A stretch of 64,000 nt of DNA from Escherichia phage PSD2001. The position numbers and the translations under genes were made by a program. Below are positions 19,437 through 28,040 of this stretch, in pieces. Each line of letters opens with the position of its first letter. The stretch's first letter is position 1. The notes below the pieces were generated by a model. It was not told the origin of the DNA. It did no database searches and saw nothing but the letters and a program-made list of their open reading frames with translations. The stretch is from the sequence record OK254198.1; one strand, 5' to 3'.

Positions 19437-19739
19437 TACCTTGTCGGGGTTCCACCTGCAAGGCAAGTGTTTGTACGAAACGCCGGGGTTCGAACCCGGT
19501 TATTAAGTAGTTGACGCTACCCAATATTTTTAAAAGGCCATATCTCGACCATATCCGAACGTTCCGTCAAAAACGCCACTCGGCTTACGGCAAAGATATT
19601 TCCTCGAATCGATAATTCGGTGCGCCGTTTCTGCTGTGATGTAAGGGGATATTAACAAATCGTAAAGATTTATTAAGACCAGTCCTTACGCAGGGAACAT
19701 CAGTCCGACGACTTACCGGTAGCGACCCGGTTTCTTGTT

Positions 19740-19815
19740 TGGTACCTCTAGAAGGACTCGAACCCTCACCTTTAACCTTAGAACGATTATATGCTATCCG
19801 TTACACTATAGAGGC
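19740..19815 (-). tRNA. tRNA-Arg (anticodon TCT), CCA encoded
   Basis: Manual fold: acceptor GCCTCTA/TAGAGGT (one G-U), D-arm, anticodon stem TAATC/GGTTA with loop GTTCTAA, T-arm GAGGG-TTCGAGT-CCTTC, then ACCA. Confidence 0.8.
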
Positions 19816-20466
19816 AATTAAATTATTTACAATATCATCTTTATAAACTTCGGCATAATGCAGTTCATAAATTTTCCAACCTGCGGCTTTTATGATATCA
19901 TGTCTTTCTTTATAATATGGGGCCAAAATCTTTTGTTTTGGATTGGAATAATGTTGATTTCCATTAACTTCAATAATTATTTTCTTATCTATTAAAGCAA
20001 TATCACAAGAATATGCTCGGTTTTCAACTGCCTGATATTCTTCGACAAATATAATACCAGCTTCAAGCAGTTTGGTTTTTAAAAATTCACACGGCACCGA
20101 TTTAAATTTAGTATTCTTTTTCCAAGGGTGTTTATCGGGATTTTCTTTTAACCATTTCTTTCTTCCATCAGAAATTCGTTTTATAGATTCGGGAGAGTGT
20201 TCTCTGCCTAGCGAAGCGACTGATAATTTTTCTCGAGTTTCCGCAGAAACGACAAACGGGACACCTGTCTTTTTAGCTACTACAAATTGATTTAAATTCC
20301 CAGATTCTATACGAGCTTTATTCATCGCAGCAACTGCAGTTTTAGAACCCTCTTTATAGGAATCTAACTTAGGGTTAGATGGACACCATCTTGTATGATT
20401 AGCCATCCAGCCTTTAGGCTTGTTAGAAGTATCAAATTCTTTATTACAATGTTTGCAGATGCTCAT
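19801..20466 (-). CDS. Putative homing endonuclease: N-terminal Zn-finger, NUMOD3-like motif, C-terminal Vsr-like (PD-(D/E)xK, DUF559-type) nuclease
   Basis: 221 aa; 'CKHCNKEF...HTRWC'; 'SAETREKLSVASLGREHSPESIKRIS'; C-term 'IIEVNGNQHY...ERHDIIKAAGWKIYEL'; lies between two tRNAs. Confidence 0.6.
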   Translation of the reverse strand: MSICKHCNKEFDTSNKPKGWMANHTRWCPSNPKLDSYKEGSKTAVAAMNKARIESGNLNQFVVAKKTGVPFVVSAETREKLSVASLGREHSPESIKRISDGRKKWLKENPDKHPWKKNTKFKSVPCEFLKTKLLEAGIIFVEEYQAVENRAYSCDIALIDKKIIIEVNGNQHYSNPKQKILAPYYKERHDIIKAAGWKIYELHYAEVYKDDIVNNLIASIV

Positions 20467-20492
20467 CAAAAATCTCCTATTAAGTATAGGAG

Positions 20493-20500
20493 TATTTATA
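20493..20500 (-). promoter_or_regulatory. Late-promoter TATAAATA upstream of the tRNA-region nuclease gene, followed by an SD-sequestering hairpin
   Basis: Minus strand TATAAATA-CTCCTATACTTAATAGGAG-ATTTTTG-ATG; SD AGGAG is in the 3' arm. Confidence 0.5.
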
Positions 20501-20527
20501 ATTGGACAGAGCACCATTCTAAAAATA

Positions 20528-20602
20528 TGACCCAGACCAGATTTGAACTGGTAACCTTTCCCTTATGAGGGGACTGCTGCTAACCAATTGAGCTACAGGG
20601 CC
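20528..20602 (-). tRNA. tRNA with anticodon CAT (Met or Ile2)
   Basis: Manual fold: acceptor GGCCCTG, anticodon loop CTCATAA, perfect T-arm ACCAG-TTCAAAT-CTGGT; one acceptor mismatch and a 3-bp D-stem. Confidence 0.7.
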
Positions 20603-26937: not shown

Positions 26938-27389
26938 TATAAACCCTTATAACCCATTTTTCTAAGTGCATCTTCAGTAATCAATCTAAACTGGATGCCC
27001 ATTTTATCAGCCACAGCTTGAGCAGCTTTCCATTTATCCGAATTAACAGCCCAAACATACATTTCGTTCATGAATCTCTTCTTGCTCGCGGCAGTCGTAT
27101 TAACTGGTTTTGCTGGAGGTCTTGTTTCCTTTTTGGGTTTAACCTCAAAGAAAAATTGTTGACCATTTGAAAATTTTACCCACATATCCATGTAATACCT
27201 GCGTTTTTTACCATCCGCATTACTAAAATACGGAATGATAACGGTCTCTGACCCCCATTGCACCACATCTGGATGATTATCCAACCAGTTAAATACAAAT
27301 TTTTCCCAGTTTGACCTGTAGGTGATTTTCTTCCAGTCTCCTTTGTACTTTGCAACGTTTTTCGGTTGCCATTTCCCGGAGTATGCCAT
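26937..27389 (-). CDS. 4: Head completion protein gp4
   Basis: 150 aa; 'MAYSGKWQPKN...ITYRSNWEKF...IPYFSNADGKKRRYYMD' as in T4 gp4. Confidence 0.92.
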   Translation of the reverse strand: MAYSGKWQPKNVAKYKGDWKKITYRSNWEKFVFNWLDNHPDVVQWGSETVIIPYFSNADGKKRRYYMDMWVKFSNGQQFFFEVKPKKETRPPAKPVNTTAASKKRFMNEMYVWAVNSDKWKAAQAVADKMGIQFRLITEDALRKMGYKGL

Positions 27390-27405
27390 ATAGCCTCCTA
27401 ATAAA

Positions 27406-27413
27406 TATTGATA
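27406..27413 (-). promoter_or_regulatory. Late promoter TATAAATA for gene 4 (near-consensus TATAAATG for gene 53 overlaps on plus strand)
   Basis: Exact TATAAATA on minus strand ~20 nt upstream of gp4 ATG. Confidence 0.6.
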
Positions 27414-27437
27414 TACTTATTTATAAATGGAGGCTTT

Positions 27438-28040
27438 ATGCTTTTTTCATTTTTTAACCCAATTGATTATGATGCTAAAACAATCAGAAAAAACTCGGCA
27501 TCATTAACGAAAGAAGACGTCTTAAGCATCCCAATGACTGACATCTTCAGAAACTATCGCGCCTATTTTGATAAGGTTGCGGTTAATTATACACCGAAAA
27601 CATATTACATCGCTGGAGCTCCAAGACCTGAAGAACTTGCATATCAGCTCTATGGTAATACTCAACTCTATTGGGTTCTCCTTATGCTTAATGATATCTA
27701 TGACCCGTATTATGGTTGGCTCGGCTCTCAGGAATCATCCTATCAGGCATCTATTCAGAAATATTCGAATGTCGGAGGTAACCAGGTCCTTTATCATGTG
27801 AATGAAGATGGTGAGAAGTTCTGGAACCTTGTATCTTATCCTGATAATCCATACACCTGGTACGATAAAGGTGACCGCAACAGATTATATCCGCAATACG
27901 AAGGCCCATTGGCTGCAGTGGATATCTATGAAGATGCTATCCGTAAAAATGAATACAAACGCGAAATAAAAATAATTGACCCAGAAGATATTGAGTCATT
28001 TATTTCTGCGCTTATCCGTGAAATGGAAAAGGCACTCTAA
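27438..28040 (+). CDS. 53: Baseplate wedge protein gp53
   Basis: 'MLFSFFNPIDYDAKTI...IPMTDIFRNY...QLYWVLLM...DPYYGW' as in T4 gp53. Confidence 0.9.
   Translation: MLFSFFNPIDYDAKTIRKNSASLTKEDVLSIPMTDIFRNYRAYFDKVAVNYTPKTYYIAGAPRPEELAYQLYGNTQLYWVLLMLNDIYDPYYGWLGSQESSYQASIQKYSNVGGNQVLYHVNEDGEKFWNLVSYPDNPYTWYDKGDRNRLYPQYEGPLAAVDIYEDAIRKNEYKREIKIIDPEDIESFISALIREMEKAL

Follow-up and report, generated by a model that had tools for sequence, protein, structure and literature searches.

A probable Vsr-like homing endonuclease gene in the tRNA operon of Escherichia phage PSD2001, with a predicted late-promoter switch and a stop codon inside tRNA-Arg

The detailed comparison of one small locus in Escherichia phage PSD2001 (sequence record OK254198.1) is the subject of this study. 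Within a window of 64 kb, by which we mean the whole stretch of DNA analysed, we have explored an open reading frame (ORF) that lies between two tRNA genes, all elements of the locus being on the minus strand. Our results make it probable that this ORF is a Vsr-like homing endonuclease gene that invaded a T4-like (Gaprivervirus-type) tRNA operon between tRNA-Ile and tRNA-Arg(UCU). By analogy, it would function like T4 segB in its locus and operon context and like I-TevI and gene e in its late switch, with a fold that is Vsr-like/EDxHD. An earlier note, made from the letters of the sequence, had placed the gene between two tRNAs and its 3' end over the first ~15 nt of tRNA-Arg. Both statements hold. 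ARAGORN calls two tRNA genes only in the window, and Rfam/Infernal independently gives the same tRNA 5' ends (19815 and 20602, at 53.5 and 52.9 bits); with these boundaries the overlap is exactly 15 nt, and it is real because the last five codons of the ORF (GCC TCT ATA GTG TAA) are nucleotides 1-15 of tRNA-Arg. The upstream tRNA, which ARAGORN names tRNA-Met(cat), is 97.7% identical to T4 tRNA-Ile over 87 nt, including 12 nt past the tRNA.

The gene is polymorphic for presence and absence, both between the window and phages CJ20 and MN01 and between phage Lion and phages Merci and KpV477. CJ20 and MN01 (Gaprivervirus) are the closest relatives of the flanks, which are 95-98% identical, and in them tRNA-Met/Ile and tRNA-Arg abut with 0 nt between. 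Relative to CJ20, positions 19736-20536 of the window are replaced, and the ORF is accompanied by a different tRNA-Arg allele; among 50,697 phage records, this allele (at >=89.5% identity) occurs only in the 11 E. coli records that bear the ORF. The Jiaodavirus empty site, in Merci and KpV477, reads tRNA-Leu-CCA-AA/GCCCTTATAGTGTAATGG (...CCAAA/GCCCTTATAG...), and exactly at the slash, which is tRNA-Arg position -1/+1, Lion carries a clean insert of 689 bp running from TTGTGCTCTATCC... to ...AAATTAATT. This insert holds the promoter box, the hairpin and the ORF with no stop codon, and translation ends at tRNA-Arg nucleotides 13-15; the left boundary of the cassette was set by the Merci/Lion comparison.

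Footprints consistent with co-conversion of flanking markers are present as well, in the form of T4-type or chimeric tRNA-Met/Ile and of replaced and chimeric tRNA-Arg, and the chimeric tRNAs appear to mark recombination tracts. In the metagenomic contig L083, tRNA-Met has a CJ20-type 5' end and a T4-type last 16 nt, whereas that of the window is wholly T4-type. Escherichia phage DCP548 (L010 ~1355-1430) has a chimeric tRNA-Arg, in which the 5' part is from the linked allele and the T-loop and 3' end are CJ20-type. Pairing in the acceptor stem is lost and ARAGORN makes no call; the recombination may have deprived the phage of a functional tRNA-Arg. In L082 and L083, the cassette and its tRNA-Arg are joined to CJ20-type downstream sequence directly after ACCA. 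In the Providencia and Acinetobacter copies, tRNA-Arg no longer follows and a degenerate tRNA-Arg 5' end is kept (...CTTATAG... and ...GTAATGG), which suggests that the fusion of ORF and tRNA-Arg is ancestral in the T4-like clade.

Relatives of the protein are encoded in 34 of the 50,697 phage records, with identities of 80-83% in the 11 E. coli (Mosigvirus-type) records, ~62% in Klebsiella/Enterobacter, 61% in Providencia, 54% in Acinetobacter and 28% in Rhizobium phages. Every relative examined among these records sits in a tRNA cluster, the Rhizobium phage ones between tRNAs. The same habit is seen in viral metagenomes: an IMG/VR scan gave 71 loci (64 after removing duplicates) with relatives 31-56% identical, and tRNA genes lie within 1.5 kb in 61 of the 64 and within 150 nt of the ORF end in 48. 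At these loci tRNA-Arg(UCU) appears to be the preferred immediate neighbour of the family, as 21 of the 58 immediate neighbours are tRNA-Arg(tct), compared with 8 of 200 other tRNAs in the same loci (Fisher odds ratio 13.6, p 1e-9). The tRNA-Arg genes beside distant relatives are too diverse to yield a target-site consensus.

In T4, the order is tRNA-Ile, segB (221 aa, GIY-YIG), tRNA-Arg, rnaD and rnaC. The layout of the window matches it, and the ORF therefore sits exactly in the segB slot. The two genes have the same length, follow a tRNA-Ile without CCA and then the same 12-nt spacer, and each has its SD (Shine-Dalgarno sequence) and AUG in a hairpin and its mRNA within the tRNA operon transcript, exposed to the cleavage that matures tRNA-Arg. 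Both families are also tied to phage tRNA genes. Nevertheless, the proteins are unrelated (a GIY-YIG fold in SegB, a Vsr-like one here): BLASTP against T4 SegB gives E 0.52, the protein has no GIY-YIG Pfam match, and we rejected homology to SegB and membership of the Seg family, the locus and the 5' untranslated region alone being shared. This region is 26/29 identical between the ORF (20467-20500) and T4 segB (L089 2920-2949, CATAAATACTCTTAGAAATAGGAGATATTT-ATG), which 0 of 2000 shuffles matched. A single control module at this locus seems to serve two different endonuclease ORFs. There are clear differences between the segB model and our gene. The stop codon of segB is its own, 5 nt before the tRNA, and here it is inside the tRNA; T4 segB has CATAAATA where the box here is an exact TATAAATA, and the SegB paper described a hairpin at its ribosome-binding site (RBS) with no promoter mapped nearby (PMC2330249). 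Relatives of SegB are associated with tRNAs without isotype preference (PMC13096335), unlike the family here, which prefers tRNA-Arg(UCU).

The slot also brings up the explanation that fares best after homing, namely that the protein is a domesticated or beneficial nuclease whose cutting in or near tRNA genes promotes rearrangement, amplification and exchange of the array, with tRNA-Arg(UCU) as cargo. We consider it unlikely, although several observations would agree with it. SegB, which holds this slot in T4, brings about the amplification of segments with tRNA and anti-defence genes, and was reported in 2026 to amplify tRNA-Tyr to escape the Septu defence (PMC13096335). A single tRNA-Arg allele accompanies the ORF without exception, the family is embedded in tRNA arrays, and dN/dS between alleles (nonsynonymous over synonymous divergence) is 0.05-0.25, with dS >1 and saturated, so that the gene is under strong purifying selection. 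However, its occurrence is sporadic (11 of >700 related E. coli phage records), which fits a selfish element better, and ARAGORN, with its two tRNAs only, shows no amplified or duplicated tRNA segment in the window. A beneficial role would moreover be compatible with homing rather than exclusive of it.

The protein itself combines three parts that the earlier note had proposed: an N-terminal zinc finger, a NUMOD3-like motif and a C-terminal DUF559/Vsr-type PD-(D/E)xK module. The AlphaFold (AF2) model, with a predicted local distance difference test score (pLDDT) of 88.6, contains a beta-beta-alpha zinc finger, NUMOD3-like helical repeats and an alpha/beta nuclease domain, and the fold that it resembles most is that of a DNA homing endonuclease, with DUF559 and Vsr next. 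The nuclease module is thereby borne out, and the C-terminal domain has the Vsr-type PD-(D/E)xK fold of the EDxHD homing endonucleases. Support for the zinc finger comes from the confident beta-beta-alpha model and from C4, C7, H24 and C28, which are common to the full-length members of an alignment of 43 relatives; a relative in BFVD bears the name 'C2H2-type zinc finger'. The NUMOD3-like motif stands in part, with helical repeats in the model, PF07460 (NUMOD3) in relatives and NUMOD3 in the annotation of phage Mizar, against a Pfam score (E 0.011, 16.1 bits) below the cut-off of 20.4. The other Pfam matches are also weak (RAP 1.3e-5, DUF559 6e-4), and the sole match above its curated threshold is RAP (PF08373, 25.6 bits against 24.2, residues 166-210 only). 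Among 5.8 billion proteins, a search brought up 190 relatives, and JGI names many of these 'very-short-patch-repair endonuclease'; in the relatives, a conserved C-terminal module of ~105 residues is preceded by variable N-terminal DNA-binding modules. PHROGs gave matches to families of unknown function and to 'homing endonuclease', and NCBIfam and PADLOC have no family for the protein.

Invariant among the 43 aligned relatives are D155, E166, N168, G169, H172, Y184, Y185, R188 and W197, and E127 is nearly so. A search of the PDB by sequence, with the full protein and with a full-length profile, gave nothing useful, and a profile of the domain alone reached 3r3p marginally (E 0.049). From the profile alignment to 3r3p and the published numbering of I-Bth0305I (PMC3239194), a marginal match, E170, D196, E206 and N208 of I-Bth0305I would correspond to E127, D155, E166 and N168, H213 to H172 with a register shift of one residue, and D222 to the invariant Y184/Y185. 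On this marginal alignment, four of the five EDxHD positions are retained and one is altered throughout the family; the nuclease is therefore not visibly dead, and putative catalytic residues are in place except for the counterpart of D222. D190 was considered as a fifth catalytic residue and rejected, as it is not conserved.

I-Bth0305I and the protein here also share the IEVNG block, the arrangement of an N-terminal DNA-binding module before a C-terminal nuclease, and a phage-borne gene that can be free-standing. They differ in having D222 against Tyr-Tyr, in the distance of the His from the Asn (5 residues in I-Bth0305I and 4 here, which is the DUF559 spacing), and in the N-terminus, which consists of NUMOD2/helix-turn-helix repeats in I-Bth0305I and of a CCHC zinc finger with NUMOD3-like repeats here. 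The gene here is neither intron- nor intein-borne and stands beside tRNA genes, whereas the EDxHD enzymes are found inside protein-coding genes. The EDxHD (Vsr-like) lineage, with which the protein belongs by its fold, already includes the T-even Hef proteins (PMC3239194). With DUF559, Vsr and RAP domains the protein shares the E-x-[DN]-G-x-Q-H and R...GW spacing; it has Asn for the Asp of ExDG and Tyr for the Asp three residues before the Arg, and, unlike these domains, it is fused to DNA-binding modules of the homing-endonuclease type in the gene context of a mobile element.

Because its only match above a curated Pfam cut-off is RAP, and because the gene is always among tRNA genes, the protein could be thought a RAP/FASTK-like endoribonuclease or RNA-binding protein that aids processing of the tRNA operon transcript. 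This is very improbable: the top fold match is a DNA homing endonuclease, ahead of DUF559 and Vsr, an N-terminal zinc finger with NUMOD3-like repeats is what phage homing endonucleases use to bind DNA (PMC3239194), the presence/absence polymorphism and the recombination footprints indicate a mobile DNA element, and the same tRNAs are processed in close relatives that lack the gene. The RAP match comes from the common fold, and a DNA enzyme is what the context favours.

Upstream of the ORF, the earlier note had described an exact late-promoter sequence followed by a hairpin (CTCCTAT...ATAGGAG) that contains the SD, and had likened it to the control of T4 e and I-TevI. The elements are confirmed at 20500-20474, and the likeness is supported by ten of ten homologues and by opening energies, the regulation itself being a sequence prediction. 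The TATAAATA box occurs 19 times in the window, where 5.2 +/- 2.2 are expected, and each copy has the orientation of the genes around it. For the 88-nt leader the folding energy is -20.8 kcal/mol, shuffles giving -11.5 +/- 2.7 (z -3.46), and RNAfold lengthens the 7-bp stem by AAAU/AUUU and AUUA/UGAU pairs and by an outer GGUGCUC/GAGCAUC helix over the AUG. We compared ten non-redundant leaders, of which three come from metagenomic contigs and the others from phages of E. coli, Klebsiella, Providencia and Acinetobacter. In every one the box precedes the ATG by 23-33 nt, its sequence being exact in nine and AATAAATA in the Mosigvirus group, and the SD is always held in the 3' arm of a hairpin, the stems of which differ (CTCCTAT/ATAGGAG, ATACTCCTATAA/TTATAGGAGTAT, ATCTC/GAGAT with GAAGTAT/ATACTTC, TTATAAATACTCAT/ATGAGTATTTGTAA). 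Since MAFFT mis-registered the 3' arm (RNAalifold kept four outer pairs, two with compensatory changes), we relied on per-sequence folding and on opening energies.

The cost of opening the RBS was taken as the free energy to unpair positions -14 to +5 around the AUG, in read-through RNA modelled with 80 nt of upstream sequence and in late RNA beginning at the sixth nucleotide after the box. Across the ten leaders, this cost is 10.3-18.8 kcal/mol for the read-through RNA and 1.2-4.9 for the late RNA (13.2 and 2.7 in the window), and 51 other SD-bearing genes of the window, used as controls, average 6.2 +/- 3.2 kcal/mol. Few controls score high, among them gene e and the late genes 4 and 53. The homologue of the lysozyme gene e (window ~11252, minus strand) serves as an internal positive control, with a read-through cost of 14.8 kcal/mol. 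The predicted geometry of late promoter and RBS hairpin is that of the T4 type, with the late start inside the 5' arm. As in T4 e, I-TevI and I-TevII as well as I-TevIII (and, as proposed, Aeh1 mobE), the SD would be sequestered in read-through RNA, here together with the AUG, and the late promoter is likewise placed so that the late RNA would start inside the 5' arm. The leader here differs from these systems in that its control is predicted from sequence, the box itself lies in the 5' arm and the upstream transcript is a tRNA operon rather than an mRNA.

A few side observations touch these leaders. Genes 4 (minus) and 53 (plus) are divergent late genes that begin in one palindromic region (27389-27438, arms GCCTCC...GGAGGC), which holds both SDs; both RBSs cost ~16 kcal/mol, and TATAAATA is at 27418-27425 (minus). 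The motif GTGCTCTRTCCAAT (20501-20515, minus), just 5' of the box, marks the left end of the mobile insert and is conserved between the E. coli and Klebsiella copies; besides pairing with GAGCAU at the start codon, it might serve in recombination or as a binding site for a protein. We also considered a MotA-type middle promoter in GGTGCTCTGTCC and, by inspection against the consensus, rejected it, the spacing to any -10 being too short.

Could the hairpin instead be an intrinsic terminator or a 3'-processing signal of the upstream tRNA, with TATAAATA there by chance or as a vestige? The stem is followed by AUUUUUG and was listed as terminator-like, a tRNA-Ile without encoded CCA needs 3' trimming, and the Mosigvirus copies carry a mutated box. 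We rejected the terminator, as its U-tract is not conserved among homologues (Mizar ATAATTGG, Klebsiella ATTGGA) whereas the SD in the stem is, and there is little chance of either function: the stem has three G-C pairs only, the box is exact in nine of ten leaders at a constrained 23-33 nt from the ATG, and the whole box/hairpin module is within the mobile insert and therefore serves the ORF, not the tRNA.

Finally among the alternatives, the gene could be a relic without cutting activity, retained through its linkage to a useful tRNA-Arg. The missing counterpart of the essential I-Bth0305I D222 would agree with this, but we find it highly unlikely: in 43 relatives, from phages of very different kinds, neither the Tyr-Tyr nor the other putative site residues vary (E127 hardly does), so that Tyr-Tyr is a family trait and not decay, dN/dS is 0.05-0.25 and repeated transfers are in evidence.

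The stop codon inside tRNA-Arg adds a further possible layer of control to the homing endonuclease gene. For T4, maturation of tRNA-Arg was proposed to cleave the mRNA of segB after its last codon and before its stop (PMC2330249). The same logic would be stronger in the window, where cleavage by RNase P at 19815/19816 would remove four codons and the stop. We examined stop borrowing in those ORFs of relatives that have a same-strand tRNA <=15 nt downstream, and several take their stop from the tRNA: that of L039 is nucleotides 13-15 of another tRNA-Arg(tct), and that of L055 is nucleotides 8-10 of a tRNA. Endonuclease ORFs also lie among the tRNAs of T5 (F-TflI/II/IV) and of mycobacteriophages (HNH genes), where down-regulation by tRNA processing has been proposed; these are of the HNH fold, and no stop borrowing or tRNA-Arg preference has been reported for them. 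At the other end of our ORF, a start at the ATG at 20517 (238-aa ORF) was rejected, as it is without an SD and this upstream ATG is not conserved, the homologues all beginning MSICKHC. As an observation in its own right, Klebsiella phage KpV477 has a 177-aa ORF (L087 1091-1624), GIY-YIG/T5orf172-like, between tRNA-Arg and tRNA-Thr, whose stop TAG is tRNA-Thr nucleotides 8-10; it is a second, unrelated stop borrower in the same hot spot.

Based on these results, we propose a mechanism that appears well founded by analogy and comparative evidence, and each step of which we infer from sequence and comparison. Early and in the middle of infection, the tRNA operon transcript would read through the gene, and in this RNA a leader structure formed by the box region and the SD/AUG region would hold the RBS closed. 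Late in infection, RNA polymerase directed by gp55 would start ~6 nt after TATAAATA, inside the 5' arm, leaving the RBS open and allowing some enzyme to be made. The zinc finger and the NUMOD3 repeats would bind DNA, and the Vsr-type domain would cut the DNA of a gene-less relative infecting the same cell, at or close to the junction before tRNA-Arg. Through recombinational repair, the recipient would then acquire the cassette together with its linked tRNA-Arg allele and flanks of variable length. Lacking its own stop codon, the cassette is terminated at tRNA-Arg nucleotides 13-15, so that an mRNA cut by RNase P at the tRNA 5' end would be left without a stop, which probably throttles the output of the endonuclease further.

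Several points weigh against this reading and have to be kept beside it. The counterpart of D222, mutation of which abolishes cleavage by I-Bth0305I (PMC3239194), is an invariant Tyr-Tyr, and the chemistry may thus differ; the NUMOD3 assignment is below the Pfam threshold. The resident tRNA-Arg of Gapriverviruses is very unlike the incoming allele, and entry into this lineage therefore needed recombination at short tRNA homologies. The p-value for the tRNA-Arg preference overstates the evidence because the IMG/VR loci are not phylogenetically independent. With AATAAATA in Mosigvirus and CATAAATA in T4 segB, the promoter is not always intact, and it may be decaying in some lineages (Mosigvirus copies such as Mizar, and T4) while the hairpin is kept. 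Finally, the running of the ORF into the downstream tRNA may be, at least partly, a passive outcome of tight packing, because U8-A9-G10 and U13-A14-R15 of tRNAs give stops in two of three frames.

A broader proposal, which we put forward tentatively and hold to be possible though doubtful, is that the gene represents a clade of Vsr-like homing endonucleases, not described before, that has specialised on the tRNA arrays of phages, chiefly on tRNA-Arg(UCU). On this proposal, the cassette would carry its own late-promoter/hairpin switch and no stop, insert at tRNA position -1/+1 and be completed by D-arm nucleotides 13-15; it would drag along its own tRNA-Arg allele and use conserved tRNA segments as recombination homology. 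Our literature searches returned no description of such a clade, of its tRNA-Arg association or linkage, or of a stop-less cassette. If true, finished translation of the endonuclease and maturation of the tRNA by RNase P would be mutually exclusive on any one transcript, a non-stop (transfer-messenger RNA) throttle would be built in for a toxic enzyme, and the element would be a vehicle that shuffles tRNA genes between divergent phages.

The coordinates of the locus are collected in the table.

Table. Features of the tRNA-Ile/tRNA-Arg locus in the 64-kb window of Escherichia phage PSD2001
Feature	Positions	Strand	Remarks
Upstream tRNA, T4 tRNA-Ile homologue, without encoded CCA as in T4	20528-20602	minus	ARAGORN call tRNA-Met(cat)
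Spacer TATTTTTAGAAT	20516-20527	minus	T4 counterpart TATTTTGAGAAC, between tRNA-Ile and segB
5' arm of outer helix, GGUGCUC, part of the GTGCTCTRTCCAAT motif	20509-20515	minus	Minimum free energy structure
T4 late-promoter box TATAAATA, exact	20493-20500	minus	Predicted late start near 20487, within hairpin 5' arm
Inner hairpin: CTCCTAT (20492-20486), loop ACTTA, ATAGGAG (20480-20474)	20474-20492	minus	SD AGGAG 20478-20474 in 3' arm
ATG (20466-20464) and 3' arm of outer helix, GAGCAUC (20464-20458)	20458-20466	minus	ATG 7 nt past hairpin
ORF, 221 aa, MSICKHC...NNLIASIV*; probable free-standing Vsr-like homing endonuclease gene	20466-19801	minus	Stop TAA 19803-19801
CCHC zinc finger (C4, C7, H24, C28), beta-beta-alpha, N-terminal	20383-20457	minus	Alignment; pLDDT ~95 here
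Two NUMOD3-like helical repeats, residues 72-105, VSAETREKLSVASLGREHSPESIKRISDGRKKW	20152-20253	minus	Pfam sub-threshold
Vsr/DUF559/RAP-type PD-(D/E)xK domain, residues 120-221	19804-20109	minus	Putative site E127, D155, E166, N168, H172
Overlap, tRNA-Arg nt 1-15 encoding A-S-I-V-stop	19801-19815	minus	Also in Mizar, Klebsiella phages, L039
tRNA-Arg(UCU), allele linked to the endonuclease gene	19740-19815	minus	ARAGORN tRNA-Arg(tct)
T4 rnaD homologue (species 2 stable RNA), end of tRNA operon	19619-19735	minus	104/116 identical
T4 rnaC homologue (species 1 stable RNA)	19474-19612	minus	135/139 identical
Terminator-like hairpin after rnaC homologue	19429-19414	minus	Terminator scan

Beyond the tRNAs, the rnaC/rnaD block is 92-98% conserved in Gapriver-, Mosig- and Dhakaviruses, its neighbouring genes far less; Rfam has no family for this block or for the leader hairpin, its matches being the two tRNAs only. 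CJ20 has ~590 bp more beside rnaC (L001 1618-2205), with a 232-aa ORF, absent from the window (19416/19404), and a 254-bp small ORF downstream of tRNA-Arg (L001 2538-2791), which is absent from the window (19735/19740) and kept in L082 and L083. Small indels such as these, among the window, CJ20, L082 and L083, make the tRNA/rnaC region a mosaic.

In conclusion, our results point to the tRNA-Ile/tRNA-Arg junction of T4-like phages as a landing site common to the GIY-YIG segB and to a Vsr-like gene, with a homologous 5' control module serving both nucleases, and this would clearly exemplify the replacement of one selfish gene by another at one site. The family would be a second, structurally unrelated group of endonucleases with a strong phage-tRNA-array habit, with an isotype preference in this one. 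About 30 GenBank phage genes labelled 'hypothetical protein' or 'HNH endonuclease' could be re-annotated on this basis. The stop-in-tRNA arrangement represents a directly testable model that couples tRNA processing to the dosage of a toxic nuclease. Finally, as SegB remodels tRNA loci against tRNA-targeting defences, such genes may help to explain the changing tRNA repertoires of phages.

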